From: a candidate division FCPU426 bacterium
GTDB taxonomy: Bacteria; Oederibacteriota; Muellerivitia; Muellerivitales; Muellerivitaceae
Reading direction: 5' to 3'
Length of the DNA: 64,000 nucleotides
NCBI GenBank assembly: GCA_963771075.1
Contig: CAVYSE010000003.1
Coordinates: forward strand, 64,001 to 128,000
Of the stretch, positions 8,401 through 31,000 are shown in pieces (within the stretch, counting starts at the first letter, position 1; each line of letters begins with the position of its first letter). Below the pieces are notes generated by a model. The model ran no database searches and was not told where the DNA came from. It was given only the letters and a program-made list of their open reading frames with translations. The translations under genes were made by a program, and so were the position numbers.

Positions 8401-11400
8401 GTGTGGGTGTGGGTGTATTGGTCGGGGTCATGGTGGGAGTCGGCGTGTTCGTTGGAGTGGGGGTAGGTGTATGTGTGGGTGTATTGGTGGGTGTATTGGT
8501 CGGAGTCGGAGTCGGCGTATTGGTTGGTGTCATTGTGGGAGTTGGAGTGTTGGTTGGGGTTGGGGTGGGTGTGGGTGTATAGGTGTTCGGGGGTGTCGGC
8601 GTCGGCGTGGGTGTTCGGGTGGGGGTGGGGGTAGGCGTTGGTGTATTGGTCGGGGTAGGTGTAGGAGTGGGTGTATTGGTCGGTGTAGGAGTCGGCGTAT
8701 TGGTCGGCGTCGGTGTAGGAGTTTTGGTCGGGGTCGGAGTAGGAGTGGGAGTATTTGTGGGTGTGGGGGTAGGCGTGTTGGTCGGGGTTGGGGTGGGGGT
8801 CGGAGTGTTAGTAGGGGTAGGAGTGGGAGTAGGAGTTTTAGTTGGTGTCGGGGTAGGAGTCGGTGTATTAGTCGGGGTTGGAGTGGGAGTGGGTGTGTTA
8901 GTTGGGGTAGGTGTAGGCGTCGGGGTGATCGTCGGGGTGGGGGTAGGGGTTGGGGTACGAGTCGGGGTGGGTGTGGGAGTGGGCGTGTTAGTAGGAGTGG
9001 GGGTCGGGGTTGGGGTATTGGTGGGCGTGGGGGTTCGGGTGGGGGTCGGTGTGGGAGTACGGGTAGGGGTTGGTGTCGGAGTAGGGGTAAAGGTGGGATT
9101 ACAAACACCATGCCAAGCAAAAGATTTGAATAGATCGTTCGGGCAACCATGGTCACTGATGCCCACAAGTCCCGATGAATAAGTCGAATCCGTGAAGGTC
9201 GTGCCAAAGGTATAAGAACCCTGGGCGGCGCCAATGGAGACAATGAAGCTGTTCCCACTGACGATCAATTGGATCCATACCGAGGTTGGACACATGGCGC
9301 ACATGGCGCTGTTGGCAGGCAGGTCCACCGTTTGGGTTTTAGTAACGTTTCCGGTACCCGTGCTGGCGGCCCCATACACGTTGAAAGTCAGAGTGCTATC
9401 CGCGTTTGCGCAATTGTCCCCGTCAAATTGAATTTCATACCCCGCGCCCGTGGAGGGGTTCACGTCCCACATGATGCCCCCCTCGTTCGGAGATTGATGC
9501 ACGTTATTTTGGCAATAATTCACCACCATGGTCCCGGGGCCGCTGGCGACCTGGGTGTTCAGCAGCTGGTTGTTTTCATCCAAACACGAGGAATAAACGC
9601 CGCCTACGAACGAAACACCGTTGGTACCTTCACCCCAAGTACCTTGGTCGGGCGGTGCAGCCCCCACCATCCAGCCAGGAGGAGTACCAGGAACCGACTG
9701 ATTGAAAGTCTGACTCACCGAACATTGTTGGGTCGGGTTACATTGGTATTGGGCCACGACCGCCTGTTGCCAATAGCTGCTTTTGGCCGTTAAAGGTGGA
9801 GCCGGGTCTAACCCCCACTCAAAACTCTGACCATTGTTGCTGAAGGCGCTAGTGGGCGGGTAATAATCCCTAGATATTTCATCAGGACCGCTTCCGACTT
9901 TACAATTCAAGGCGCCTGGAGGGCCGCTCCATACGGCTGGAGACCCTTCGTTACCCCCGTATTGTGAACCATTTGACGCCGGTGGATGGTTGGGGCCCGA
10001 TCCGTTGGTTTCGATCTGGTCCATGAATCCATTGGTACTGCCGGTACACTCCTGGGCGCCGCCAAGAGCGGAAAAACGCGTCGAGTAGGAACCGCAACTC
10101 ATGCCCAGGCAGGTCCAATTCAAGTTGGTGTCATAGGGGGGATAACCATATGCTATTTGGCCGTTTTCTTCATAATGCCATGCGCTCTCCCCATCCGAGA
10201 TGGCCACGACATTATTGGAGGTTTCCGCCGGATTTTTGTAAAGCACCATCAGCCCCAATCCCTGGCATGAATCGCCGACGGCGGAGGTGTTAACGGTATT
10301 GGCGCCCGTGTTAAGGGAACCGGGACTAATTCCATAACGAATGCTGTACCAGGTCTGGGTCCATCCGACATAGGAAACCGCACCCGTATTTGTTCCAGTG
10401 CCTGTCCCGTTTCCATTGATCGTGATTTGAGTCGTATTAGGAGCAACATCAGCACCACCGTTGTTGTATTCCACATATAGGAAGGCCGTGACGGCTGTTG
10501 ATCCTGCGGGAAGAGTTACGTTCAAGGGTTGGCCGCACTGGGCAGAGACCATGGTGTAATCTAACCCGGTACCCTGGGCCACTAAACTTTGCTGTTGGGA
10601 ATAGGCGCTCGGTTGGCTCGCGCCGCAATTGGTGAAGGTAATCCCGCTGACCGTCACGGGCTGCATGGGGGCAGGTGTTTGGGTGATGGTGGGGGTCGCG
10701 GTATGGGGTCCGGGAGTGTTGGTGGGCCCGGTCCCATTAAATTGGTTGGTGGTCGTATAGGTCGTTCCGCAGGAACCCACGCTCAAAGGTCCAATGGTTG
10801 TGGATTGCCCACAGGCGTTCGTTACGTCGAAATAAAATGGCCCTCCGGAGTTTCCGTTCAGGCCACCGCTGGTGAGTCCCCAATACTCATCCCCACCCAC
10901 GCCGTTCGCACCCAATGTAAGAGCCGTGTAGGTGCCATTGGAGGTAGAGGAGACACTGACAGACGTGATGGGAATATTCATGTCCAAAAACTGGATGGGA
11001 TCGTAACTTGCGCTGCAACCTGACTTCCATTCATACATGATGTCACCGGAGGGGTCCCCGGTCATCATGCTCAAAGGACACTGGATGAAATGCCAGTCGA
11101 TATTTGCGATACCCGCTGGAGCATTTCCCGTCAATGTGTTCCAGGCAGTGGGGCCCAAATCCAGTTGGTTTGCGGTGGAACAACTCGGACAGTTGTCCAC
11201 CACCATGACCGTGACGGAACCGCCCGTCGTTATATCCAACGCGTCGATGCAAGCCCCGCAGGCCATACCGTTCTGGTAATCAGCGCTGATGATGGCGGCG
11301 TAATAATTCGGATCGTAGGTCCCACTCGGAAAACCGCAATTGCCCGTACCCGGGGATAGGGGCCCGTAGGTAGTCGCGATGGATGTATAGGTGGTGGGTG

Positions 11401-11578
11401 AACTGGAACAAATGACGGCCGAACCAAGAACTTGGGCGTAAGAATACGTTACCGGTAGAATTCCGATAATAAGTGAAGTAATAAATATTTTTGCGCTTCG
11501 ATTGTCGTTAAAATTAACCAACAATCGACGCTCATGAAAACATGATAACGTTTTCAGGAACTTCAGTAACGAATTCAC
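5495..11578 (-). CDS. Giant secreted protein (~2000 aa): expansin-like head, beta-rich domains, ~770 aa Thr/Pro stalk, DUF11-like domain, FlgD-Ig repeats and T9SS-like C-terminal tail; frameshifted in its 3' part
   Basis: ORFs 6467..11578 and 5495..6250 join through frame changes near 6490, 6320, 6035, 5995 and 5855 (bridging frames read [29 protein letters not shown] and [29 protein letters not shown]). Motifs [60 protein letters not shown]. Confidence 0.85.
6790..9100 (-). repeat. Low-complexity coding repeat, (TP)n / TPTNTP / TxT stalk
   Basis: Degenerate 6-nt codon-pair periodicity over about 2.3 kb. Confidence 0.95.
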
Positions 11579-13692: not shown

Positions 13693-14265
13693 CTAGGTCG
13701 GGTCGCTTTTTGAATCGGAAAAATAGGCAAGGAATATCAAAATAATTCCCACCGTAATACAGGAATCGGCGAGATTGAAAATCCACGGGAACTTAACAAT
13801 GATACCCGGACCGGCAAGTTCAAATAACCATGGAAATTTCGTTGTGAAGTATGAATTGACATAATTTAAAATCCACGGAATTTTCAACGTAAAAAAGTGG
13901 ACTCTTTCAAAATCAATAAAATCCACCACTTCCCTTCGAAAAATCCGGTCCGCGAAATTGCCCATGGCCCCGCCCCAAATCAGTCCCAGGGCGAACCTTA
14001 AGACGTTTTTTTCCTTGGGAACAAAGCGTTGATAGGCATAGACCACGAAACCCGCGCCTAGGGTGATCAGGATAAAAAAGGGGATTCGCACCCAAACCCC
14101 CAGATGGGAAAAGAAACCAAAAGCGGCGCCCGGATTATGGATATAGGTCAGGTAAAGCACCCGGGGAACGACAGGAATCGATTGGTCTGGAACGCAAAAG
14201 CGCGACACCAGGAATTTCGAGAGCTGGTCCAGGATCAAGACCCAGAGTGAAACCTTTCGAATCAT
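13693..14265 (-). CDS. lspA: Signal peptidase II, copy 2, with internal insertion
   Basis: DQLSK, NPGAAFG, GAMGNFADR, VVDFID, FNLADS. Confidence 0.92.
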   Translation of the reverse strand: MIRKVSLWVLILDQLSKFLVSRFCVPDQSIPVVPRVLYLTYIHNPGAAFGFFSHLGVWVRIPFFILITLGAGFVVYAYQRFVPKEKNVLRFALGLIWGGAMGNFADRIFRREVVDFIDFERVHFFTLKIPWILNYVNSYFTTKFPWLFELAGPGIIVKFPWIFNLADSCITVGIILIFLAYFSDSKSDPT

Positions 14266-14744
14266 CCCGGTTCCGCCGCTTTCTCCTTTTGGCCCCTTAA
14301 ATAAACCGTAAGGAGGATCAACAAACCGATCAGGACGCAGGAATCGGCGATATTAAATACATACCACTGGAAATCTTCCCAACGTAAATCGATGAAATCA
14401 ATCACCCTGCCGTAAAGAAGCCGGTCTAAGAAGTTGCCCAACACCCCCCCCAGCACCAGGCCCAAACCCACCCGGGGAAGGTTCTTGTCGGGAGGTAAAA
14501 AATGTTGATAGGTATAAACGATGGCGAATGCGGCCAAGGTCGCGGCCACGAAAAAAGGGATCCTCACAATCGGCTCCATTTGGGCCATAAAACCGAAAGC
14601 CGCGCCGGGATTCTGCTTGTAGGTCAAAAAAACCGTGTTGAACAAAAGGGGTATCGACTCGTTCAATTGAAGCTGATGCAAAACCAGGAACTTGCTTGTT
14701 TGATCAAGCGCCAAGACAAGCATGGCGATACCCAGGAGGATCAT
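14262..14744 (-). CDS. lspA: Signal peptidase II, copy 1
   Basis: DQTSK, NPGAAFG, GNFLDR, VIDFID, FNIADS; ATG overlaps the ileS stop (ATGA). Confidence 0.93.
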   Translation of the reverse strand: MILLGIAMLVLALDQTSKFLVLHQLQLNESIPLLFNTVFLTYKQNPGAAFGFMAQMEPIVRIPFFVAATLAAFAIVYTYQHFLPPDKNLPRVGLGLVLGGVLGNFLDRLLYGRVIDFIDLRWEDFQWYVFNIADSCVLIGLLILLTVYLRGQKEKAAEPG

Positions 14745-17593
14745 GCCTTCCCACCTCCCCGGGTGGTTGGCCATTCGCGTACCCGAGGTCCGCAACGATG
14801 GCAAATATCCGAAGTTACTTTGTCCATCTGCTCAACCGGGTAATAGTTCCAACAGCGTGCGCACTTTTGTCCGTTAAATTTGCGGGAAACAGTTTTAATT
14901 TTCAATTCCGAATCTTCCGCTTCCTGTGCATCCACCGGCGGGTTCCCATCCTTAAGGTTCACGGAGGAAACGAGGAAGTAATAACGCAATTGGTCCTGGT
15001 GCTTTAACAAGGATTTCCCGACTTTTTCATTGCCTACATAAAGATCGACTTCCGCTTCCAAGGAGCTTCCGATGACCTTCGCTTGCCGAAGGCCTTCCAG
15101 GGATTTCGAAACGGCCCTTTTCACCGCCAGAATCCATTCCCATTCCTGCTCAAAAACCGGGTCCACCTGGGAGTCCACCGAAGACCACCGGGAATCAAAC
15201 ACGCTTTTTTCCTTGTTTACGCGAAACTTTTCCGGCAAGGCCTGCCAAATTTCCTCCGCGGTGAAGGAAAGGATGGGCGCCACAGCGACGACAAAATGTT
15301 TCAAAATGTCGTAAAGAACAGTCTGGGAGGCCCGGCGGTCCTTGGAATCGGTCGCGTAAGTATAGAGCCGATCCTTCAGGATATCGAAATACCCCGCGCT
15401 CAAGTCCACGGAGAAAAACCGGTCCACCTGGTGGAATACCCTCGTGAACTGATATTGCCGGTAGGCATCCTCAATCCCCGCCAGCGTTTTTCGGGCTTCC
15501 ATCCATGCCCATCGGTCTAGGGCGGTCAATTCCTTTTCACCCACTCGGTGAAGGACCGGATCAAAATCCGAGAGATTTCCCAGGATGAACCGGAAAGTGT
15601 TGCGGATACGGCGGTAGGCTTCCGACATGCGGGTCAACATCACCTCACTGATGGATACATCTTCGGTGTAATCCTCCGAAGCCACCCAAAGACGCAAAAT
15701 GTCCGCGCCGTATTTTTTCACCATTTCTGTCGGATCGATCACGTTGCCCGCACTCTTGTGCATTGCCTTGCCCTGGGCGTCCAAAACCCAGCCATGGGTT
15801 AAGACTCCGGTAAAGGGTGCTTTCCCTTTCAGGGCGACCCCGGTCCAAAGGGCATGTTGAAACCATCCCCGGTGCTGGTCGCTTCCTTCTAAATATAGGA
15901 CATATCTATTTTCTTGCGGGCCGACAGCCTTCAACTCATCCCTTTGGTCCAAGACGGCAAAGTGAGAATTCCCGGATTCGAACCAAACATCCAAAATGTC
16001 TTCTTCTTTAATAAATTGAGTGGACCCACAATGACACTTATGGTCTGGGGGTAGAAGATCCGACGCCTGATGTTGGAACCATCCGTCGATTCCCTCTTTT
16101 TGAACCAGCGAGACAACGTTTTCAAGCACCGTTGGATTTCCCACCACCTCGCCGCAAGACTGGCAATAAATGGCCGTAATGGGCACACCCCAAGCCCTTT
16201 GCCTGGAAATGCACCAGTCCGTTCTCCCCTCGACCATGTTTCGCATGCGGTCTTTGCCCCAGGTAGGTATCCATTGCACATTCTCGATTTCCGCTAGGCA
16301 TCTTTTCCGCAAGTCTTTGTTGTCCAATTCGATAAACCATTGGGCGGTGGCCCTGAAAATGATGGGATTTTTCGACCGCCAACAATGGGGATAGCTGTGT
16401 TTCAGTTTCTCAACGGAAAGCAGTAGCCCCAATTCCTTGAGTTTCTCGACGATTTTCGGGTTGGCGTCCCAAACCGAAACGCCCTCCATTTCCTTGAAAC
16501 GGGAGTCATAGCGCCCCGCCTCATCCACCGGCGAGTAAACTTCCAAATGATATTGAAGGCCGATCTCGTAGTCTTCCCGTCCATGTCCGGGGGCGGTGTG
16601 AACCAAACCCGTTCCCGTGTCGGCGGTGACGTGGGGCCCGACCATGACCAAAGAATTCTTGTCGAGAAAAGGGTGCCGTGCCAGAGCTCCGTCCAGGGCC
16701 CGCCCCTTCACCTCATCCACGATCTTGATGTGGGAAGCGTTCCAACCGCAAGCTGCGGCCACTTGGGACAGCAAGACCTTGGCTAGGATGTAATTGTTGT
16801 CCCCAACCTGGACCGTCACATAGTCAAAATCCGGGTGGACGGAAATGCCCAGGTTCGCGGGCAAAGTCCATGGGGTAGTCGTCCATATAAGAAAGAAAAG
16901 GTTTTTCCGGGGAGTATTGGGGAAAACACCGCTGGGTAGGTCCTTGACCGGGAAAGCCACTGTGACCGACAGGGACTCATGGTCGGCGTATTCCACCTCG
17001 GCTTCCGCCAGGGCTGATTTGCAAACTGGACACCAATGGATCGGCCTCAGGCGCCGGGTGACATAGCCTTCCGAAATCAATTGGGTTAGGGCCCGAACCA
17101 GGGAAAGCTCATAAGCGGGGTCCATGGTCGAATAGGGTTTGTCAAAATCGCCCAATATCCCTAATCGTTTAAACTCCTCCTTTTGGCGTGCCAGGAATTT
17201 ATCGGCGTATTTCCGGCATTCCTTGCGGATCTCAATTTTTGACATCGTCTTGGCCCTGGAACCTAATTGCTCGACCACCTTGTGCTCAATGGGCATGCCA
17301 TGGCAGTCCCAACCCGGCACATAAGGCGTTTGTTCTCCCCGAAGGGCGTGAAACTTGACAATGATATCTTTAAGAATCTTGTTGAGGGCATGACCCATGT
17401 GGATATCCCCATTTGCGAAAGGAGGGCCATCATGAAGTATGTATTGGGTGGTGGAACCGGCGGACTGGGTTCGGCCTTGATAAAAACCAAAATTTTCCCA
17501 CAGTTTCAAGCGTTCGGGTTCGGTCTGGGGAAGGTTAGCCTTCATGGGAAAGTCAGTCTGGGTGATGTTGAGGGTGTGTTTGAAATCGGCCAT
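14741..17593 (-). CDS. ileS: Isoleucine--tRNA ligase (type 1)
   Basis: HDGPPFANG.IHMGH, PGWDCHG, WTTTPWT, WCISRQR, EGSDQHRGWF, AMHKS, C-terminal CARCW..CHRC zinc finger. Confidence 0.98.
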   Translation of the reverse strand: MADFKHTLNITQTDFPMKANLPQTEPERLKLWENFGFYQGRTQSAGSTTQYILHDGPPFANGDIHMGHALNKILKDIIVKFHALRGEQTPYVPGWDCHGMPIEHKVVEQLGSRAKTMSKIEIRKECRKYADKFLARQKEEFKRLGILGDFDKPYSTMDPAYELSLVRALTQLISEGYVTRRLRPIHWCPVCKSALAEAEVEYADHESLSVTVAFPVKDLPSGVFPNTPRKNLFFLIWTTTPWTLPANLGISVHPDFDYVTVQVGDNNYILAKVLLSQVAAACGWNASHIKIVDEVKGRALDGALARHPFLDKNSLVMVGPHVTADTGTGLVHTAPGHGREDYEIGLQYHLEVYSPVDEAGRYDSRFKEMEGVSVWDANPKIVEKLKELGLLLSVEKLKHSYPHCWRSKNPIIFRATAQWFIELDNKDLRKRCLAEIENVQWIPTWGKDRMRNMVEGRTDWCISRQRAWGVPITAIYCQSCGEVVGNPTVLENVVSLVQKEGIDGWFQHQASDLLPPDHKCHCGSTQFIKEEDILDVWFESGNSHFAVLDQRDELKAVGPQENRYVLYLEGSDQHRGWFQHALWTGVALKGKAPFTGVLTHGWVLDAQGKAMHKSAGNVIDPTEMVKKYGADILRLWVASEDYTEDVSISEVMLTRMSEAYRRIRNTFRFILGNLSDFDPVLHRVGEKELTALDRWAWMEARKTLAGIEDAYRQYQFTRVFHQVDRFFSVDLSAGYFDILKDRLYTYATDSKDRRASQTVLYDILKHFVVAVAPILSFTAEEIWQALPEKFRVNKEKSVFDSRWSSVDSQVDPVFEQEWEWILAVKRAVSKSLEGLRQAKVIGSSLEAEVDLYVGNEKVGKSLLKHQDQLRYYFLVSSVNLKDGNPPVDAQEAEDSELKIKTVSRKFNGQKCARCWNYYPVEQMDKVTSDICHRCGPRVREWPTTRGGGKA

Positions 17594-17719: not shown

Positions 17720-19000
17720 TTACGAACGGGATTCGCGAGGGACTCGCAGGATACTGTTGTCGCCTCCCTGGCCGTCATGGATCCTCTCTGAGCTCTTCGG
17801 ATCGGAAATCCACTCCACATCCTCCAACACAAACTTGTAATGGTAGGTTCCCGGGTTCAAGGACATGATGAAACGGAATGAACCGTCAGGCTGGCGTACC
17901 ATGAGGTCTTCATCCTTGTCCCAATTGTTGAAATCCCCGACCAGTGCCACGCGGTTCACCGGCCGGTAAGGATGGTAGGTAATAGTCACGTTGCTCGGCG
18001 GGCTATAAGACTCGACCCGGTTACGCCCCTTGGATTTGGCCGAGTAAAGGCTTTCGTCGGCGGTCTTGATCAGGGATTCCTCGTTGGAAGCGTCCACAGG
18101 AAAGGTCGCCACCCCGGCCGAAAGGGTAACCCGGCCTAATGGCTGGGATTCCATGTGGTCAAAAGGGGTCGTCTCGATCCGGCTACGGATCCGTTCCGCC
18201 AATTCGGAGGCCCTTTTGCGGCTCGTCTCCGGCAGGATCAGCACAAATTCCTCGCCCCCGTACCGGGCCACCACATCCACCTCCCGGGCCTCGTCCTCCA
18301 AAATCTGCGCCACTTTTTTCAACACCTCGTTGCCGGCCGGATGGCCGTTGGCGTCGTTATAGATCTTGAAATGATCCAGGTCAAAGATAACCAGGGAGAG
18401 TAGACGGTGATATCTGTCGGCGCGGACCCTCTCTTCCTTCAGCCTTTCCAGGAAGTACCCGAAGTTATAGAGCCCGGTCAAACGATCCGTAATGGCCATT
18501 TGTCTTGTCCGTTCATAGAGCAAGGCGTACTCGATGGCCAGAACGTCTTGGCCCAGGCTCTCCGAATCCCCACCCTGCCGCATGGCCCCATCAAAGAAAA
18601 CCAAGCCCAAACGGTTCAAGAGCAGGGTGACCTGCTCCAGCTTTTCGACCGTTCCCGACTCGGCGGGGCTTTCCCCCGCCGATACCTCGCTGGACAATTC
18701 CCTCAGGCTGTCCCGCAAAAGGAATAGTAAAAAAACCATGTCCGTCCCGGATAAACGGTTCACCGCCTGCAAGGTCTTGAGGTTTTGAACGATAGGTTTA
18801 AGGACCGCGTCAACGGCTTGTTCGGCGCTACCCTTTTTATCGACGATAGCGACCAGGTTGCGAAGAAGATCCCGTACCGCCCCAAAAACGGGAGTCTCGG
18901 TTCCCATCAAAGACAAACGCCCCGCCAAAGCCTCCCGGGTCATCTGCCAGTGGGCCCGAAGGCTTTCCATCCGGGTATCCAAAAATAGATTTAAGTTCAT
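17720..19000 (-). CDS. Diguanylate cyclase: RsbRD_N-like N-terminus + GGDEF + C-terminal CBM48/AMPK-beta-like glycogen-binding domain
   Basis: DRLTGLYN, DLDHFK.YND..GH..GN, I-site REVD, GGEEF; C-terminal VALVGDFNNW..M...L.PGTYHYKFV...WISDP...DGQGGDNSIL. Confidence 0.9.
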   Translation of the reverse strand: MNLNLFLDTRMESLRAHWQMTREALAGRLSLMGTETPVFGAVRDLLRNLVAIVDKKGSAEQAVDAVLKPIVQNLKTLQAVNRLSGTDMVFLLFLLRDSLRELSSEVSAGESPAESGTVEKLEQVTLLLNRLGLVFFDGAMRQGGDSESLGQDVLAIEYALLYERTRQMAITDRLTGLYNFGYFLERLKEERVRADRYHRLLSLVIFDLDHFKIYNDANGHPAGNEVLKKVAQILEDEAREVDVVARYGGEEFVLILPETSRKRASELAERIRSRIETTPFDHMESQPLGRVTLSAGVATFPVDASNEESLIKTADESLYSAKSKGRNRVESYSPPSNVTITYHPYRPVNRVALVGDFNNWDKDEDLMVRQPDGSFRFIMSLNPGTYHYKFVLEDVEWISDPKSSERIHDGQGGDNSILRVPRESRS

Positions 19001-19058
19001 GGGTTCGTTCTTCCGTTTCCTATGGGAAATTTAAATGGGATGGAGGTCAAGGGCGGGG

Positions 19059-20576
19059 TCAGGGCTTCATCAAGGATTCGTATAAAACCATGTATTTTTT
19101 GGCGGTCGAATCCCAGGAAAAATCCTGCCGCATGTCCCTTTCCACCAGATCCGCCCAAAGCTTGGACTGGTGGTAGGCCTCCAAGGCCCGCCGTAGGGCG
19201 CCTAAGAACTCATCCCGCCGGGTATTCTCAAAGACAAAGCCCGTGCCCCGCAGGCCATCGGGCGAGAGATTCTCCACCGTGTCCGAAAGGCCGCCCGTTT
19301 TCCGGACCACCGGCACAGTGCCGTATTTCATGGCGATGATCTGGCCCGACCCGGAAGGTTCGAACCGGGAGGGCATGAGAAAAAGATCGCTACCGGCGAA
19401 AATGAGCTTGGCCAGCCGGTGGTCGTATTTCAGGTTCACGGCGAGTTTCTTCGGGTACCGGCCATGCCATTCCTGTAGCAAGTCGTGGTAACGGCTCTCG
19501 CCGGTTCCCATTACGACGAATTGGGCGTCCATTTCCACGAGATCTCCCATTGTTTCCGCGATCAAATCAAACCCTTTCAGGTCATTGAGGCGGGTGAGGA
19601 GGCTTACCACCGGAGTGTGGGGCTTGAACTCAAGGTCCTGTTCCTTCGTCAGTTTGCGTTTGGACTCGACCTTATGGCTGTGGTTTTTCATGGTGTATTG
19701 CGCTGGGATTTCCTTGTCGGAGGCCGGGTTCCATTCCGCGTAATCGACCCCGCTGAGGATCCCATGCAAGTCCATGGATCGGGTTTGAATTACCCCTTGC
19801 AGGCCGTGCCCCTCCTCATCCGTTTGAATCTGCTTTGCGTAGGTGGGAGAAACAGTGCTCACGGCCTCGGAATACACGAGACCGGCCTTGAGATAATTCA
19901 CTTGGTCGTAAAATTCCAGGCGTTCCGCGCGGAACTCCTCCCAGGGAAGCCCGGTCATGGGCAAAACATATTTCGGAAACAATCCCTGGTAAGCCATGTT
20001 ATGAACGCTAAAAAGTGTTTTAATCGGGGTATAAATCGGTTTCTCCCGGTAAAGGGTTTTCAAATAAGCCGCCACCAAGCTGGTCTGCCAATCGTTCAAA
20101 TGGATGATATGCGGAATCCAATTGACTGCCTTGAGCATTTCCAGGACCGCCCTGGAAAAGAAGGCAAACCGTTCGGCGTTGTCGAGATAATCGCCATCCG
20201 GGGTTCCGTAGAAACCGTCCCGGTCAAAATAACGGTCGTTCTTGATGAAATAAGCCATGCCGTGGGACTCGGTGAAATGGGTCGACAGGATATCGGCCTG
20301 CATATCCCCCATTCCCATGGGCACCGGAAGTCCCCGGGCCTCCAACTTGAAATCATACTTTTCATAAGAGACGGCGCGATAAAAAGGGAGAACGACTCTT
20401 ACATCGCAGCCCAGCTTTAATAGGGCGGCGGGGAGAAAATGGGAAACATCGGCCAATCCCCCGGTTTTCATGAAAGGGGACGCCTCGGAGCTGACAAAAA
20501 GCACCCTCATTTGGGAGGAACTGGTGGTTTTCGCCGAATGGGAAAAGGACTGTTGGATTCGATCAAAAATCGACAT
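19059..20576 (-). CDS. glgA: Glycogen synthase (GT5)
   Basis: KTGGLADV, DNAERFAFF, IHLNDWQT, HNMAYQG, MPSRFEP, TGGLSDTV, DFSW. Confidence 0.95.
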   Translation of the reverse strand: MSIFDRIQQSFSHSAKTTSSSQMRVLFVSSEASPFMKTGGLADVSHFLPAALLKLGCDVRVVLPFYRAVSYEKYDFKLEARGLPVPMGMGDMQADILSTHFTESHGMAYFIKNDRYFDRDGFYGTPDGDYLDNAERFAFFSRAVLEMLKAVNWIPHIIHLNDWQTSLVAAYLKTLYREKPIYTPIKTLFSVHNMAYQGLFPKYVLPMTGLPWEEFRAERLEFYDQVNYLKAGLVYSEAVSTVSPTYAKQIQTDEEGHGLQGVIQTRSMDLHGILSGVDYAEWNPASDKEIPAQYTMKNHSHKVESKRKLTKEQDLEFKPHTPVVSLLTRLNDLKGFDLIAETMGDLVEMDAQFVVMGTGESRYHDLLQEWHGRYPKKLAVNLKYDHRLAKLIFAGSDLFLMPSRFEPSGSGQIIAMKYGTVPVVRKTGGLSDTVENLSPDGLRGTGFVFENTRRDEFLGALRRALEAYHQSKLWADLVERDMRQDFSWDSTAKKYMVLYESLMKP

Positions 20577-20787
20577 AGACGCCTTTATTCGCTTTAAATT
20601 AAACGGAATTTATCAGGGATTGTGGCCGTCAAATTTTTGGCATTATAGGTTTCGCGGCAGGGAGGGTCAAGGAAAGCCCCAAACGTTCGTTGAATACAGC
20701 CTACTTTCGACAGGCATCAATCCTGACACAATATTATCTCAATGAAACCCGCTGAGTGGACCCCAGTTCATTCCCACCATGGATATC

Positions 20788-20821
20788 AAGGAAGGGCTAA
20801 AAAGGTTTTCAGCCCTTTCTT
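20788..20821 (-). terminator. Stem-loop downstream of glgM
   Basis: aaggaagggct-aaaaaggttttc-agccctttctt inverted repeat. Confidence 0.45.
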
Positions 20822-20844
20822 AATTAAAACAAGCAACCCCAACA

Positions 20845-21999
20845 CTATTTTTTAGGCACACCGGATACAAGGGACGCGTACAAGTCTCTGGTCTTCTCGG
20901 CGATGGAAGTCCAGCTGAAATATTTCTCCACCCTTTTGCGCCCGTTTTCCCCGTAACGTTGGGCCATGGCCGGATCTTTTAACAGCTTCTTAACGGCCTC
21001 TGCGATCTCGGTAGGTTTGCCAGGCGTGACCAGATACCCCGTCTCATCCGGCACCACCACTTCCAGGATGCCCCCCACGGCCGAAGCGACAACCGGGGTT
21101 CGGCAGGCCATGGCTTCAAGGTTGATGATTCCGAAAGGCTCGTAGATCGAGGGGCAAATGAAAACCCGGGCGGAGCTGTACAATTGGATGACTTCCTCTT
21201 CCTTGAGCATCTTGCGGATCCAAAGGATGTTCTTCTTCGTGCTGGCTTTTTTCGTCATCAGTTCCTCATATTCCTTGGTATCCCCTCCGCCAGCGCATAA
21301 CACGACCTGGCAGGGAATCTGATCCGCGGCGTCGATCAAGTGCTCGATTCCCTTTTGCGGGGTCGTGCGGCCGACATAAAGAACGAAATCATCCTGGATC
21401 CCGTATTCTTTCTTCAAGGAATCGCTCAAGGACGTCTTCACGTATTTATTCAGGTCGATCCCATTATGGATGATCGCGACCTTGTCTTCCGGAACCTTGA
21501 AATGTTTGAGGATATCGGCCTTCATGTCCTTGGAAACGGCCACGATCTTGTCGGCCGATTCGATGGATATCCGCTCGATCCAGGAACTCAACTGGTATCC
21601 CCCCGCCCCCAATTGCTGGTCTTTCCAGGGACGCAGCGGCTCCAGGCTGTGGCAGGTGAGGACGAAGGGCACCTGATAAAGAATCTTGGCCAGGAGACCG
21701 GCGAAGTGGGCATACCAGGTATGGGTGTGGATCACATCCGAATCAAAATCGTCGGAGAGGGACGCCATATTGACCGACATCGTTTCCAATACGGACGAGA
21801 ATTTCTGCTTGTCTTTGAGGTATTCCCAGGGTTTGTAACCCTTGGCGCGGCGGCGGGCCTCCCGCTCGTCCTGTTCGCCGAAACATCGGACATCCACATC
21901 CATTATTTTCATCAACTCTTGGGATAGATATTTGATGTGGATGCCCGCCCCTCCGTAAATGTGCGGCGGATATTCCTTGGTAACCAGGGTAACTTTCAT
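20845..21999 (-). CDS. glgM: GT4 alpha-maltose-1-phosphate synthase (actinobacterial GlgA/GlgM type)
   Basis: TKEYPPHIYGGAG.H, HTHTWYA, HSLEPLRPWK.QLG.GY.LSSW.E, CPSIYEPFGIINLEAMAC. Confidence 0.9.
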   Translation of the reverse strand: MKVTLVTKEYPPHIYGGAGIHIKYLSQELMKIMDVDVRCFGEQDEREARRRAKGYKPWEYLKDKQKFSSVLETMSVNMASLSDDFDSDVIHTHTWYAHFAGLLAKILYQVPFVLTCHSLEPLRPWKDQQLGAGGYQLSSWIERISIESADKIVAVSKDMKADILKHFKVPEDKVAIIHNGIDLNKYVKTSLSDSLKKEYGIQDDFVLYVGRTTPQKGIEHLIDAADQIPCQVVLCAGGGDTKEYEELMTKKASTKKNILWIRKMLKEEEVIQLYSSARVFICPSIYEPFGIINLEAMACRTPVVASAVGGILEVVVPDETGYLVTPGKPTEIAEAVKKLLKDPAMAQRYGENGRKRVEKYFSWTSIAEKTRDLYASLVSGVPKK

Positions 22000-22038
22000 T
22001 CTTTCTTCTCCTTGAGGAATTGGGTCAGCGATCCGGGT

Positions 22039-24027
22039 TTAATGCCCAGGGGTGCGGATATAAGCGTCGATGATGGACTCCCATCCGTGTTTTTGAGCTA
22101 GGCCGTCGATCACGAAGTGGAATGCCTCTTCGTAGTTCACTCCCGAGTAAATCTTTGGGGCGATGACTTCCTGAAAGAGGTGGGACATCTGGCGGCGCGC
22201 CAGGATGTCGCTCTTTTTGCCAGCCTGTTCCTGGAATTCGAAAAACAACTTTCCTTTTTCTTCCGCCATGGGCGAGGCCAGATTTCTAGGAACCTTCGCC
22301 CTTCCCGGCCGGAGGCGGAAGATCTGAACGGGTTCGCGCGTCGGGTCCAGCAGCACGTAATTCTCTCGGCCCTTCCAGGCGAAAGTTTTTTCGGTGATTA
22401 ATTCCTCGGCCAGGTAGGTCTCGTCCGATCCCAGCCCCAAATTCTCGACCGGAACAGTAACACGGGAAGTTTGGGTTCCGTTCAAGTTGAAGTTGACAGT
22501 GATCAGTAGGTGGTTTTCGCCCTTGGGATCGGATTTCAAAAATGCAAGGACATGTTCGTTGGTGGAAGGGCAGAATTGGATATTGTCGAAATAACGCAAG
22601 GCGAGGTTTTCCTTGCGGATGCGGTTGACCGCGCCGATATAGTCCTTGATATGTCCCGGGCGGTCCCAATCCCAAACCTTATATTCATACTTTTCGGAAT
22701 GGATGTAGGTTTCCGCATTCGGGTTGGCCGCGTTCTCGCACAGTTCATAGGTGCTGTAGATGCCGTAGGCGGGCGCCAGGGTGGCGGCGAGCCCCAGGCG
22801 CATCTTGAAGGCGGGCCGCCCTTCCCTTTGAAGGATCTCGGGCAGAATATCCGGGGTGTTGCAGAAGAAATTCATCCTGAGAAAATCCTTCACGTAGCTG
22901 GACGTCAGCCGGCCCATATACTCGATCATCTCGTTCTTCGTGTTGCGCCAAGTGAAATAGTTGTAGGACTGGGAAAAACCCAGCTTGGCCAGCAGTTCCA
23001 ATCGCTCATAGTAGGTGAAGGCCTCCGAGAGGAAGAACAGGTCCGGGTTTTCTTTTTTCAGTTCCGGGATGACCCAGTGCCAGAAGTCGTCCGGTTTGGT
23101 GTGGGGATTGTCGATCCGGAAGATGGTCACGCCCTGTTGAATCCAGAAGGAAAAAATATTCTTGAGTTCCTTCCACATCGCGTCCTTATCCGGGGGATAA
23201 AAGTTTAGGAAAACCGTGTCTTCATATTTCTTCGGCGGGTTCTCGGCGTATTGGATGCTCCCATCGGGATTGTGGAAAAACCAGTCTGGATGTTCCTTGA
23301 GCCAGGGATGGTCGTAGGAACAGGTGAGGGCCATGTCCATCGCGATGCGGATCCCCATCTTGTCGGCTTTCTTGACGAATTTCCTGAAATCCTCCAGCGT
23401 TCCCAACTCGGGGTGGATCGCGGTGTGTCCCCCCGTCTCGTCCCCTATGGACCAAACGCAACCCGGGTCTCCCGGCCCGGCCCAAAGGGTGTTATTGGGT
23501 CCCTTGCGATTGGTATGACCAATGGGGTGGATAGGCGCCAGGTAGATCACGTCAAAACCCATGCCCTTGATCTCACCCAAACGTTCCTCACAGTCCTTGA
23601 AAGTGCCGCTCTTACCCGGAACCCTTCCTTGGGATCGGGGGAAAAGCTCATACCAGGCGCCGAAGCGGGCGACCTCGGGCTCCACGAAGACCTCCAAAAT
23701 ATGTTCGTACCCTAACGGTTTGCCGGCATGGCCCGAAGAGGCCTCGACGGTGTATTCGTAAATGCCGGTTTTGGGGAACCGGACGGATCCCCGGTACCTT
23801 TTAAGTTTTCCGGGCATATTCAAGGCTTCCAGTGGTTTTGAGTCCCACTTTTTTTCGCCTTTTTTCCTGTAAAGAAGTAAAACCTCGGAGGGGTTCCCAT
23901 CCAATCCGGCCTCCACCTGAAATTCCAGGTTCAATTCCGTTTTGACAGGGTATTTTCCACCGTCCACTTCGGGGTAAATGTGCCGAAAGGCTAAAGGCCC
24001 GGAACTTTTTGGTTTCTTCATGTTCAA
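22039..24027 (-). CDS. glgE: Alpha-1,4-glucan:maltose-1-phosphate maltosyltransferase (GH13_3)
   Basis: WYELFPRS, PIHPIG.TNRKG.NN, YAENPPKKYED, FRIDNPHTKP, FLSEAFT, NTPDIL, SEKYE. Confidence 0.95.
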   Translation of the reverse strand: MNMKKPKSSGPLAFRHIYPEVDGGKYPVKTELNLEFQVEAGLDGNPSEVLLLYRKKGEKKWDSKPLEALNMPGKLKRYRGSVRFPKTGIYEYTVEASSGHAGKPLGYEHILEVFVEPEVARFGAWYELFPRSQGRVPGKSGTFKDCEERLGEIKGMGFDVIYLAPIHPIGHTNRKGPNNTLWAGPGDPGCVWSIGDETGGHTAIHPELGTLEDFRKFVKKADKMGIRIAMDMALTCSYDHPWLKEHPDWFFHNPDGSIQYAENPPKKYEDTVFLNFYPPDKDAMWKELKNIFSFWIQQGVTIFRIDNPHTKPDDFWHWVIPELKKENPDLFFLSEAFTYYERLELLAKLGFSQSYNYFTWRNTKNEMIEYMGRLTSSYVKDFLRMNFFCNTPDILPEILQREGRPAFKMRLGLAATLAPAYGIYSTYELCENAANPNAETYIHSEKYEYKVWDWDRPGHIKDYIGAVNRIRKENLALRYFDNIQFCPSTNEHVLAFLKSDPKGENHLLITVNFNLNGTQTSRVTVPVENLGLGSDETYLAEELITEKTFAWKGRENYVLLDPTREPVQIFRLRPGRAKVPRNLASPMAEEKGKLFFEFQEQAGKKSDILARRQMSHLFQEVIAPKIYSGVNYEEAFHFVIDGLAQKHGWESIIDAYIRTPGH

Positions 24028-25583: not shown

Positions 25584-25934
25584 CTAAAATTCGCCGACAG
25601 CATCCTGCTCGGTCTTGAGGATATGAAAGAGGCCCGGTAATTCCAACAGGTCGAAAACCTTGTAAATGTCGGGACTGACGTTGGTGATCTTGATGTCCCC
25701 CCTGTTTTTCCGGACATCCTTGATGACACTCATCAAAACGCCGAAACCGGCGCTGGAAATATAGGTCAGTTTCTTCATGTTCAACACGACCTTGTACTGT
25801 TTCTTCTTGAACAAATCTTGGAGGCACGTCTCAAAATTACCGACCGTGTTGATGTCCAAAACTCCCTCTATATCCACCACAGTCACGGCGGTGTTGGACA
25901 TGGCGGAGTGCGTGGATAGGACCAAACTTTCCAT
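25584..25934 (-). CDS. STAS domain anti-sigma factor antagonist
   Basis: GVLDIN, LNMKKLTYISSAGFGVL (phospho-Ser motif). Confidence 0.92.
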   Translation of the reverse strand: MESLVLSTHSAMSNTAVTVVDIEGVLDINTVGNFETCLQDLFKKKQYKVVLNMKKLTYISSAGFGVLMSVIKDVRKNRGDIKITNVSPDIYKVFDLLELPGLFHILKTEQDAVGEF

Positions 25935-26938: not shown

Positions 26939-28030
26939 CTATCTTTTGGTTAATACCTTTTTCAAAACCTCGGCCACCTTTTCCGGTGCGATCGAATCGC
27001 AAAGGTTATCCCGGGAACGGATCACGAGCGGACGGTGAATCTTCAAGGGCCCCCATTGTCGGGGGTCGCTAGGCCCGAATAAGGCGATCACCCGGGTCAC
27101 CAGGGAGCAGGCGTGGGTCAACCCGCTGTCCCCCGCGATCACCACCGAACACCTTTGGGCCGCGGCCAAGGTCGAGAACAAATCATTCGTGGGTAGGATA
27201 ATGACTCCGGATCGATCCTCAATCGTTTTTTTGAAATTTTCGAGGGCGGATTCCTCACCCTTTCCATGCAAGACCAGCCACTTCAATCCCGGTCGGGCGG
27301 GAAAATAGTTTATCAACTCGGCGAAATGACCCGAATCCCATCGGTTGTCCTTCTTGAGAAGGGTGGGATGGATCCCGATAAGCCGGTCTTTCGGCCCTAA
27401 CCCATGAATCCTCAAAACTTCATCAACTGATTTCCTGGCTTCATTCAAATCCAGCTTGAAAACAAGATTCAGGCCCTGAAATTTGGCGCCGGGATAAAGG
27501 CGGCGGGACAAAAGCATGCTTTTTTGGGATTCATGGAGGAAAAGATCGGGGTTTTCAACTCCCCAATTGAATATTTTGTGGATGATGCCATCCCCCTCGG
27601 CGGAATGGACGAAACCCACCCGGCGGGAGGTTCCCGAGGCCAGGGCCATCAGTCCCGAGGTGGTGGAAAAGGGATAGGAGTGCAGGTCCACGACCGCGTC
27701 AAAGCGCGTGAACAGGATTTTCAGGAAAAGGAAGGTTCGGGAAAAGAAGTTCTTCCGGAAGGTCCAAACGGTAATTTTCGGAAAGAGAAGGCGGGCGATC
27801 GATTCATTGGGTTCACCCGCGACCAAGGTCACCCGGGCGGAAGGTCCCGCCTGTTGGATGAGGGCCACAAGGGCGGGCGCGGACAAAATGAAATCCCCCA
27901 AACGGTCCGGCCTCAGGAGAAGCAGGGACGGGGCGGAAGGCGGGGGTTGTTGACTGTGGGGCAGGCGGACCAGGACGGGCTCTAAAAATAGCCAGAAACC
28001 CTTCTTTGCCATTTTTTCCAGCCGGGACAT
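26939..28030 (-). CDS. GT9 family glycosyltransferase (LPS heptosyltransferase-like)
   Basis: [36 protein letters not shown]. Confidence 0.88.
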
Positions 28031-28036
28031 TTCGGT

Positions 28037-31000
28037 TTAACCGACCTTGGATTCCTCGGGCCGGTTTTCCTTGAACTTGGTCGAAAGGATCTTGGAGACG
28101 CCCGACTCCTGCATGGTCACCCCGTACATGATGTCCCCCGTTTCCATGCTGACCTTGTTGTGGGTGATCATGATGAACTGCGTTCGCTTGCTGAATTCCT
28201 TGAGCAGGTGGGTGAACCGGCCCACGTTGACGTCGTCCAGCGGCGCGTCGATCTCGTCCAAGCAGGCAGAAGGGGCTGGGTTTGACCATGAAAAGCGCGA
28301 ACAGAAGCGCGATAGCGGTCAGGGCCTTTTCCCCCCCGGATAGCAGGAAAATGGATTGCAGCCTTTTGCCCGGGGGGACGGGCCACGATCTCAATGCCCG
28401 ATTCCAGCACATCCCCCTCGTCGATCAGGATCAACTCCGCCCGTCCCCCCTCGAAAAGGCGCTGGAAGATGTCCTTGAAATTTTCCTGGACGGTGGCGAA
28501 GGTGGATGTGAAAAGTTCCTTGGAGGTCAGGTTGATCTTGTTGATGGCTTTCTGCAGATCGTCCTTGGCCTTGAGCAGGTCCTCCTGCTGTTCGCGTGAG
28601 GAACTTGTAGCGCTGGGAAAGCTCGTCATATTCCTCCATGGCGACCATGTTCACGAGCCCTAACCGCTCGATCTTGGCGCGCAATTCGATGCACTCGGTC
28701 TCGGCCAAGGCCGCGTCAAAATCCTCCTGGGGGGTGACGGGAGGGTTCTCAATATCGACCTTATATTCCACCTGGAGCTTTTCCTCGTAATTACGGATCT
28801 CCACGTTGATCTGGGCTTCCTGCACCGCCAGGCCGTGCATTTCTTTCTGGATCTCCTCCAGCTTAATCCTGGATTTTTTCACCCTCTCGATGCGTTCCTC
28901 AGTTTCGGCGGCGACGGTTTCACGTTTGGCCATGACCGCATGGACCTTGTCATCCGCCTCTTTTTTGGAGTGGGTGAGGCCACCGGCCTTTTGCTCCAGG
29001 TCGGTCAGATCCAGCGATAACTGGCGGTCTTGGCTCTCCAACTGCTGGTTTTCGTCCTTTTTCAGGGCGACCGAATGGGTCAATTGGTCCTGTTCGGTCT
29101 GGTAACGGTCGGCTTCCTCCTGGGCACGAACGGCCATTTCGTCCATGGCCGCCAGTTCCAATTCCGCCTGGACTACCAACCGGGACAATTCCTCCCGCCG
29201 TCCCTGCAGGTTTTGCAGGGATTTGCGCGCCTCGGAGATTTCTTCCTGGGTCAGGTGGTGGGCTTGTTCGCTTTGGGCCAGGAGCACCGAAAGCTGGTCC
29301 ACCCGGTCCTTATCCGCCTGCCAATGGGCTTCCAGGTCTTGGCGTTCTTTCGCCAGCCCCGTTCGTTCCCCCTCCAGTCGGGCCTTGGTTTCCCCGATAC
29401 GGTGAAGTTCCTTTTCAGTCTCGGCCAAGAGGATCTTCAACTGTTGGTTGCGGCCCTCGGAGGCCAAAAGGGCGTCCTCGGTTTCTTTGCGGACCCTTTT
29501 GGAATCGATGAGCTTTTGCTCAGCCGTTTGGATATCCCCCTCCAGTCCCTTGAGGCGGTCGCTCAACTCGGTCATTTCCCGGTGGCGGCCCAAAAGCGAG
29601 AAGCCCGAAACCGCGGACCCGGCTTTCCAGGAACCCTTGGGCCCCTGGCGGTCGCCGTCCCGGGTCACGAAACGCCGGGTGGGATGCTGTTCGCTCAAAC
29701 GTCCCGCCGCGGACCAATCCTCCACCAGGTGCCCATCCCCCAATAAAAACCGGACCATGGGTTCCATCTCCGGTTTGAATTGGACCGATTCGGGCAGGGG
29801 ACCGACATGGCCCTCCCCCGGAGATAGGGCGACGGCTCCGGCGGGGACGAGGTCTTCCAGCACCAACAAGGAAACCTTACCCTGGCCTTCGGCTTTCAAG
29901 AATTCCACGACCTTGGTGGCGGCAACCCGGTTTTGGACGACGAGGGATTGCAGCTGGCTGCCTAACAGGTTTTCCACCGCCCCTTCCATGGATTGGTCCA
30001 CGGAGAGGAGGTCGGCCACCACACCCAGCACTTCCTGCCACATCAGGGGTTCGTTTTGCTTGGCCTGGAGGACCGCCTTCACGCCCGCGTCATAACCCGT
30101 GAGTTTGTCCTGGAGTTCCTGGAGCACGCCGTAACGGGACCTTACCTCGGAACATTGGTTGTTCAACTGGCGCAAGGATGAGTTGATCTCCTCCAATTGG
30201 GTTTCCTGTTGGGAGAGCGAGGTTTGGTAGCCCATGATCGTCTCGACGGTCTGGATCTCCTCGGCTTGGGCATTTGTCTTCGCGAGATGAAATTCTCCCA
30301 GCATGCGGTCGGAATCCGCCACTCCCGTTTCCACGCGGTTCAATTGGTCCACCAGGTCCTGGATGCGCTTGGAGGTTTCGGCGTCCTGGGAACGGAGCGA
30401 GTCCAGCTCGGCGCGCATTTGGGCGGCCTTGGTCACCAGGTCCACCGCGGCGCTATTCTTGCTTTCCAGGTCCTGGTTTTTGGCGCTCAGATCGCCGTCC
30501 AGGGCGGATAATTTCTCGACCAGTCCGCGTTTTTGGGATTCCCTCTCGGCCTTTTGGCTTTCCTTCGAGGCCACCGCCTGGCGCCGTTCGGCGATCCAGG
30601 TCTTGAGGTTCTCGATACGGGCCAGGGCCTCGGCCACCTGCTGTTGATTGCGGGCTCGTTGGTCGGCCAGCAGATCCTTGTGGCGCTTGGTACCCTCCAT
30701 GCGGCCCTGGGTCAACTCCACCTCGCTGTGGACCTTGTAAGCCTGTTCCCTGGTTTGGGCGAGTTCTTCCTCGATCTCGGCCAGGCGGGAACGCTGCTGT
30801 TTTTCATCCTGTTCCAGGTTGTGGGTCTCGGCCTGGGCCCCCTCCATTTTTCCCCGGACCTGGTTCGTCTTGTGCTCCAGGTCCTTCAATTTGTCCTTGA
30901 GCTTGACGGTCTTGTCCAAATGTAAAAGGATCTGGAGCTTGCCCAGCTCTTCCTTGAACTTTCGGTACTTCTCGGCCTGCTTGGCCTGCCGCTCCAGGGT

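Follow-up and report, generated by a model that had tools for sequence, protein, structure and literature searches.

We analysed a window of 64,000 nucleotides from a candidate division FCPU426 bacterium (GenBank assembly GCA_963771075.1, contig CAVYSE010000003.1, forward-strand positions 64,001 to 128,000), to which all coordinates below refer unless stated otherwise. Its minus strand carries, directly behind the glycogen synthase gene glgA, a 426-aa open reading frame (ORF) with an ATG start (17720..19000) that joins an RsbRD_N-like region, a GGDEF domain and an AMPK-type carbohydrate-binding module (CBM) of family 48 (CBM48) in one chain. The N-terminal helical domain (aa 1-141) and a signalling helix (aa 149-170) occupy 18491..19000 according to the structural model and hidden Markov model (HMM) matches, the GGDEF domain (aa 169-328) lies at 18017..18496 according to Pfam and alignment, and the CBM48-type AMPK1_CBM domain (aa 348-422) at 17735..17959 according to Pfam, PDB alignment and fold match. 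The translation contains GDFNNW, YKFV, WISDP, NSIL, REVD and GGEEF, so that the GGEEF site, the RxxD inhibitory site (I-site) and the CBM48 motifs named in a preliminary description of this DNA are all present, in agreement with Pfam and the predicted fold. The GGDEF domain matches PF00990 with an E-value of 1.6e-46 (158.5 bits) and TIGR00254 with 176.8 bits, above the curated cut-off. As the ORF is intact and conserved, we dropped the possibility that it is an artefact.

An AlphaFold model of the protein, which was built from a 64-sequence alignment and has a mean predicted local distance difference test score of 89.4, consists of five N-terminal helices, a linker helix (aa 149-170), a GGDEF fold and a C-terminal beta-sandwich; the model contains neither a signal peptide nor a membrane helix. 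In fold comparisons its GGDEF part matches canonical cyclases with Z scores of 25-27, and the linker helix holds the conserved stretch DVLAIEYALLYERxRQxAIT. The RsbRD_N/globin-like character first ascribed to the N-terminus finds partial support in the family: of 24 members, 17 match the RsbRD_N HMM (PF14361; best E 1.8e-8), and the Atlas score is 0.82, but Pfam does not match RsbRD_N to the copy in the window. The structural likeness to the non-haem stressosome globins RsbR and MtR (2bnl, 3zta) is weak: the best Z scores of the fold search were 8.4 and 8.0, and the match to 3zta (MtR; Z 8.0, rmsd 4.4, 117 aligned residues) is tied with unrelated helical bundles. Unlike RsbR and MtR, the domain is fused to GGDEF and not to STAS, and a second clade of the family has another helical domain. 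A haem-binding globin was dropped because the domain has no conserved His, and it is likely non-haem, judging from the alignment. A homodimer prediction for aa 1-171 scored 0.41 against a mark of 0.42, which gives no evidence either way.

The C-terminus, as had been proposed, is an AMPK-type CBM48. It matches AMPK1_CBM with an E-value of 1.1e-10 (42 bits, cut-off 26.8), CBM_48 (PF02922) scores 17.2 bits on the same region, below its cut-off of 22.4, and the best sequence matches in the PDB are AMPK beta modules (1z0n, E 5.8e-5). The model beta-sandwich matches CBM48 folds with Z scores of 11.5-12.7 and rmsd of 2.2-2.6, the individual Z scores being 12.7 for an amylase (4aef), 11.8 for SNF1 (2qlv) and 11.5 for AMPK (6b2e); the AMPK/SNF1 beta modules 1z0n, 2qlv and 6b2e share the fold at Z 11.5-11.8. 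In an alignment to rat AMPK beta1, from which the AMPK numbering is derived, W360, K389, W397, G412 and N415 correspond to W100, K126, W133, G147 and N150, and conservation over the 64 aligned sequences is nearly complete for W360 (64/64), K389 (63/64), W397 (62/64) and N415 (63/64). Mutations of W100, K126, W133, L146 and T148 are reported to reduce glycogen binding by AMPK (PMC2642990). The position of L146 is Q411 in the window copy and hydrophobic in 60 of the 64 sequences, and that of T148 is Gly (G413; 63/64), with an alignment gap adjoining both. As predicted from these residues, the module very probably binds alpha-glucan through two Trp and a Lys in the manner of AMPK beta, and it is the sole AMPK1_CBM of the genome. 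The likeness to AMPK is that of a signalling enzyme with a glycogen-binding module, a predicted one in the present case; AMPK has its module on a kinase subunit, and the present protein joins it to a nucleotide cyclase in one chain.

A homologue search with residues 290-426 yielded 139 proteins, of which the best 120 were considered. Precomputed Pfam annotation gives both domains in 101 of these 120, and P0103 is a further, truncated member. Within the FCPU426/Firestonebacteria-type phylum the fusion occurs in 37 of 99 genomes, namely, the genome of the window, 28 of the 30 others of its own family, and all members of three further families (5/5 in f3, 2/2 in f14 and 1/1 in f6). It likely extends to other phyla, since both domains recur in an ESM Atlas cluster of 81 members, 11 of them with an assigned phylum, most often Planctomycetota; a scan of viral contigs gave no match. 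The proteins form separate groups by N-terminal type: type A, to which the window protein belongs, has the RsbRD_N-like domain, and type B, which occurs in f3, f6 and f14 and at many loci from metagenomes, has the other helical domain, for which Pfam gives no match. In a tree of the GGDEF domains, computed from 50 of the 120 proteins, type A groups with GGDEF proteins that bind cyclic nucleotide monophosphates (cNMP-GGDEF; support 100 in the Shimodaira-Hasegawa-like approximate likelihood-ratio test) and apart from type B, and a single origin of the fusion is not rejected by the approximately unbiased test (p-AU 0.485). Databases carry the architecture as automatic annotation only, and, in line with the preliminary description, a full-text literature search with little coverage of subscription journals brought up no paper that describes a fusion of GGDEF with CBM48. 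The fusion is real, and is apparently an uncharacterised GGDEF variant with a putative link to carbon storage.

For the active site we used PleD numbering as given in PMC12943098, which differs from that of the fusion protein by a constant offset of 120; conservation was counted over the 64 aligned sequences, and the two specificity sites over 103 (the query and P0002-P0103). With GGEEF at 248-252, equivalents of the canonical D327/E370, K332, N335, K442 and R446 are all present, and the metal, phosphate and base residues are constant (D207, N215, E250, E251 and K322 in 64/64) or nearly so (K212 and R326 in 63/64). The I-site is also complete (R193 64/64, R239 60/64, D242 63/64, R270 64/64). 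The protein shares with PleD, WspR and DgcR the GGDEF fold, these catalytic residues, a full I-site and a preceding signalling helix, but differs from them in two specificity positions, in the GGEEM/L motif of most relatives and in the C-terminal CBM. The guanine-reading D344 of PleD is replaced by Asn224, which is Asn in all 103 homologues among the matches listed, and the cross-dimer R300 by Phe180 (F in 99, Y in 4); in 92 of the same 103 the fifth motif residue is M, L or V, and the motif GGDEF itself is confined to a distant sub-clade. Since the metal, phosphate and general-base residues are invariant and the change from Asp to Asn does not alter the length of the residue, the enzyme can be predicted with good confidence to be catalytically active.

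According to PMC6456294 and PMC9140294, Asp and Arg at these two positions give canonical enzymes their specificity for GTP; the first of these sources states that the cross-dimer Arg is found in 94% of predicted diguanylate cyclases, that the same two positions set the product of Hypr enzymes, and that natural Ser/Thr (Hypr) enzymes pair solely with GGDE[F/Y]. The Hypr enzymes GacA, GacB and Bd0367 resemble the fusion protein in departing from the canon at both positions, in their aromatic cross-dimer residue and in a kept I-site, but the fusion family has Asn and not Ser/Thr, and GGEE and not GGDE[F/Y]. Because it thus falls outside the Hypr definition and lacks two canonical features of diguanylate cyclases, we file the protein as neither class. 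The earlier designation as a diguanylate cyclase holds for the GGEEF motif, the catalytic residues and the I-site but not for Asn224 and Phe180, and the label 'diguanylate' is not assured by the sequence.

The substitutions are not confined to one clade. Type B proteins have Asn in 8 of 8 cases, and of the 7 that extend over the cross-dimer site, 6 have F/Y there and one has L. Asn occurs in 8 of the 9 representatives (50% identity, chosen blind to the motif) that cover the site, P0286 having the canonical Arg/Asp pair; the homologue query excluded both specificity sites. Among generic GGDEF matches Asn occupies the D344 position in 5 of 87. The cNMP-GGDEF proteins (P0105-P0113, L042) share the Asn site, and the pair of Asn and an aromatic residue recurs among them, as it does in a family of Bacilli proteins with transmembrane, GAF and GGDEF domains (TM-GAF-GGDEF; L300-L329), which has tandem paralogues in at least three genomes and shows Tyr/Phe with Asn throughout its 33 domains. 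In background GGDEF domains an aromatic cross-dimer residue accompanies Asn in 4 of 7 and Asp in 8 of 93 (Fisher p 0.004, kinship ignored). From these alignments, the Asn and aromatic pair looks like a compensated working site and not like decay. No GGDEF structure with Asn at this position was found among the best 5 alignments of 27, 46 and 47 PDB matches, and our literature search found no paper on a tested Asn variant. We considered an Asn-type protein of Neobacillus (L111) as DgcP, a c-di-GMP maker and would-be counter-example, and dropped it since its identity was not established: its relatives have a hydrophobic, membrane-type N-terminal segment and adjoin a gene that reads as folC-like from the sequence, and DgcP of B. 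subtilis is soluble.

These positions bear directly on the product. A glycogen-bound promiscuous synthase would make 3',3'-cyclic GMP-AMP (3',3'-cGAMP) or a mixture of products, with Asn224 pairing with either purine edge and Phe180 stacking like Tyr304 of GacA. In a direct alignment to GacA (6d9m), N224 indeed falls on Ser348 and F180 on Tyr304, and this possibility draws further support from the fixation of Asn and Phe/Tyr across the family, from the recurrence of the pair in the unrelated GGDEF proteins just described, and from a protein with a Hypr signature in the same genome. The latter (L149; G000:C6:149177-150169, minus strand) is a 330-aa GGDEF protein with Ser at the D344 position, a GGDEF motif and Ser at the cross-dimer site, and is by its residues a candidate cGAMP synthase. 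However, the GGEE motif differs from that of the natural Ser/Thr enzymes, EAL partners accompany the fusion in some lineages, the single HD-GYP protein found in the genome by a simple motif scan has RxxK and not RxxQ/N, and a search for the GEMM/c-di-GMP-I riboswitch (RF01051), for which no positive control rang, found none. The two HD-GYP signatures are described as canonical (RxxK) and cGAMP-type (RxxQ/N) in 10.1101/600031. We regard a promiscuous synthase as rather unlikely; Asn, too, hydrogen-bonds guanine. Besides the HD-GYP, the genome has one EAL, one DAC domain protein and 21 PilZ matches, each of which lies in a short frame (122-191 aa). Given the fused or adjacent EAL domains, the canonical P0286, the PilZ, the EAL and the RxxK of the HD-GYP, the main product would rather likely be cyclic di-GMP (c-di-GMP).

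The genome encodes GlgA, GlgB, GH57, phosphorylase, GlgE and GlgM. GlgE and GlgB account for both GH13 frames of this 96.7%-complete genome, so that no GlgX and no TreS were found, and the GlgX receptor analogy drawn in the preliminary description cannot hold in that form. GlgA is present in 89 of the 99 phylum genomes, including all 37 carriers of the fusion and 52 of the 62 genomes without it. On the other hand, GlgC was found in none of the 99 at an E-value of 1e-60, a search in which controls rang in 8 of 14, and in the window's own genome the GlgC profile scores best on nucleotidyltransferases of other kinds, with 119 and 96 bits against a cut-off of 425. A lack of GlgC has been described for Bacteroidetes (PMC10395257). 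The GlgA and GlgM of this phylum may depend on a different sugar nucleotide or on a pyrophosphorylase that escaped recognition. Allosteric control of glycogen synthesis is usually exerted at GlgC, and the lack of this enzyme lends plausibility to control at the granule without being any proof of it.

The same absence is one ground for a second alternative, in which the protein is a weak or dead cyclase acting as a c-di-GMP receptor: its I-site would read c-di-GMP, the CBM would deliver it to the granule, and it would regulate GlgA or the phosphorylase, so that the signal would flow from c-di-GMP to glycogen and replace the allosteric GlgC step that the phylum lacks. The four nearly invariant I-site residues, the loss of the guanine-reading Asp, a motif ending in M/L, and the 58-bp gap to glgA, which makes co-transcription with this gene likely, all fit such a receptor. 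Degenerate receptors usually lose their metal and base residues, but here these residues are invariant across both clades, even at 40-45% identity; moreover, R239 of the I-site is missing in 4 of 64 members and most lineages do not have the gene next to glgA. This alternative seems improbable to us.

The fusion ORF starts 58 bp behind the stop of glgA (19059), ends 126 bp before ileS, and is co-oriented with glgE-glgM-glgA, and here coordinates and profiles agree with the preliminary description. The upstream genes, all on the minus strand, are glgA itself (glycosyltransferase family 5; 19059..20576, TIGR02095 above cut-off), a glgM-type maltose-1-phosphate synthase gene (20845..21999, TIGR02149 above cut-off) and the maltosyltransferase gene glgE (22039..24027, GlgE_dom_N_S and GLGE_C), the last two being a rare insertion. 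A sigma70-like promoter match (11/12) at 20642..20670, minus strand, falls within the 268-bp gap before glgA; it is a consensus match only, with 2 found against 4.0 expected in shuffled sequences. Directly upstream of the fusion lies glgA in all 23 own-family loci with upstream DNA, and of five further own-family loci that end at the fusion gene, three (G007, G011, G023) are glgA-adjacent by coordinates. The fusion occupies position X of a block smc-ftsY-STAS-5'-nucleotidase-glgA-X-ileS-lspA that is kept as a whole, and a genome of a sister family (G025) has the same block with glgA-ileS and no cyclase between them. This points to a single gain, or loss, of the fusion gene immediately behind glgA, and the 23 adjacent cases are accordingly not independent. 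The glgE-glgM pair lies between the nucleotidase and glgA in 1 of 21 relatives (G003), so that glgA is the only glg gene that constantly adjoins the fusion in its own family.

A pattern scan of metagenomes gave 112 matches, with DNA for 80, and a motif filter retained a fusion ORF in 65 of these, 15 being dropped. Among these loci glgA adjoins the fusion in 13, all of the own-family type. The glycogen-cluster context originally assigned to the gene consequently stands for glgA in its own family but not for glgE-glgM or for other lineages. There the neighbours include EAL genes, a pair of HAD hydrolase and methyltransferase genes, GH94/glucoamylase, GH116 and GH9; EAL is fused in P0059 and lies upstream and co-oriented in L197 (same cluster L216, L227, L244). 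In five loci (L208, L236, L239, L245, L254) a type B fusion with a GGDEF motif is flanked on one side by a sugar transferase gene and on the other by a large GH94/glucoamylase gene, which resembles cyclic beta-glucan synthase.

Such neighbours, some of them unrelated to sugars, would suit a third alternative, namely, that the ligand of the CBM is a different glucan or soluble malto-oligosaccharides, or that the module serves as an anchor with no regulatory effect, and that the position behind glgA is a one-time accident carried along in a housekeeping block. The free variation of glgA neighbours across the phylum also fits this view. However, glgA is present in each genome with the fusion, both clades retain the AMPK-type residues, and the ligand would be cytoplasmic, since the model has no export signal or membrane helix. 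We consider this quite unlikely.

Starting from the observed domain order, conserved residues, distribution and synteny, we regard as the best explanation, with a probability of about 0.5, a working cyclase, tethered to glycogen and inhibited through its I-site, whose main product is c-di-GMP, made in dependence on the store. In this scheme a soluble three-domain GGDEF protein would dock on glycogen via its AMPK-type module, and its cyclase, predicted to be active and product-inhibited via the I-site, would emit a signal tied to the amount or surface of the stored glucan. Binding to the granule may alter the local concentration, or the packing, of a dimer formed via helix 149-170, and the RsbRD_N-like domain might supply a second input. 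Several observations weigh against a glycogen-tethered, c-di-GMP-making cyclase. Both specificity positions and, in most relatives, the fifth motif residue depart from canonical cyclases, and the positions of L146 and T148 of AMPK are altered as described above. The adjacency to glgA is one inherited arrangement, in a block whose unrelated genes are equally well conserved; glgA adjoins the fusion in none of the 8 genomes of other families (f3, f6, f14), nor in any of the 27 further metagenome loci for which 1.5 kb or more of upstream DNA was available. Furthermore, glgA is common in genomes without the fusion, and among the glycogen enzymes of the genome we recognised none for which a c-di-GMP site is known, as no GlgX was found.

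Second-messenger control of bacterial glycogen is called a large gap in PMC9530166, which also describes Streptomyces GlgX as a c-di-GMP-activated debranching enzyme. GlgX likewise links c-di-GMP with glycogen and has a CBM48; however, GlgX reads the signal, and the fusion protein would write it. A writer placed on the granule would thus run in the reverse direction to this reader and form a bacterial parallel to AMPK. In addition, the effect of an Asn in place of D344 has a bearing on many proteins annotated as 'diguanylate cyclases', and the presence of glgA without glgC in the phylum (89 against 0 of 99) raises the question of how glycogen synthesis is fed and controlled. A bolder reading, which we hold to be doubtful, is that the Asn/Phe site marks a third specificity class (cGAMP or mixed products, without the Hypr Ser) in a granule-bound sensor of the carbon store in a GlgC-less phylum; if it is true, the Asn and aromatic signature would reassign the cNMP-GGDEF and Bacilli TM-GAF-GGDEF families.

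An Rfam scan of the window gave no match. Elsewhere on its minus strand, the small STAS gene of the block (25584-25934) is 67-94% identical within the family, mostly above 80%, which exceeds its neighbours, and is present in the sister-family genome G025. The 3' end of smc (27813-28629) is split over several frames, giving an ORF of 1072 aa against about 1190 in relatives, and this disruption is likely due to indel errors in the assembly. Two tandem lspA-like genes lie between ileS and lgt (13693-14804), an arrangement common to most relatives, and an ORF of 1703 aa (6470-11578) stands amid strong GC and AT skew.

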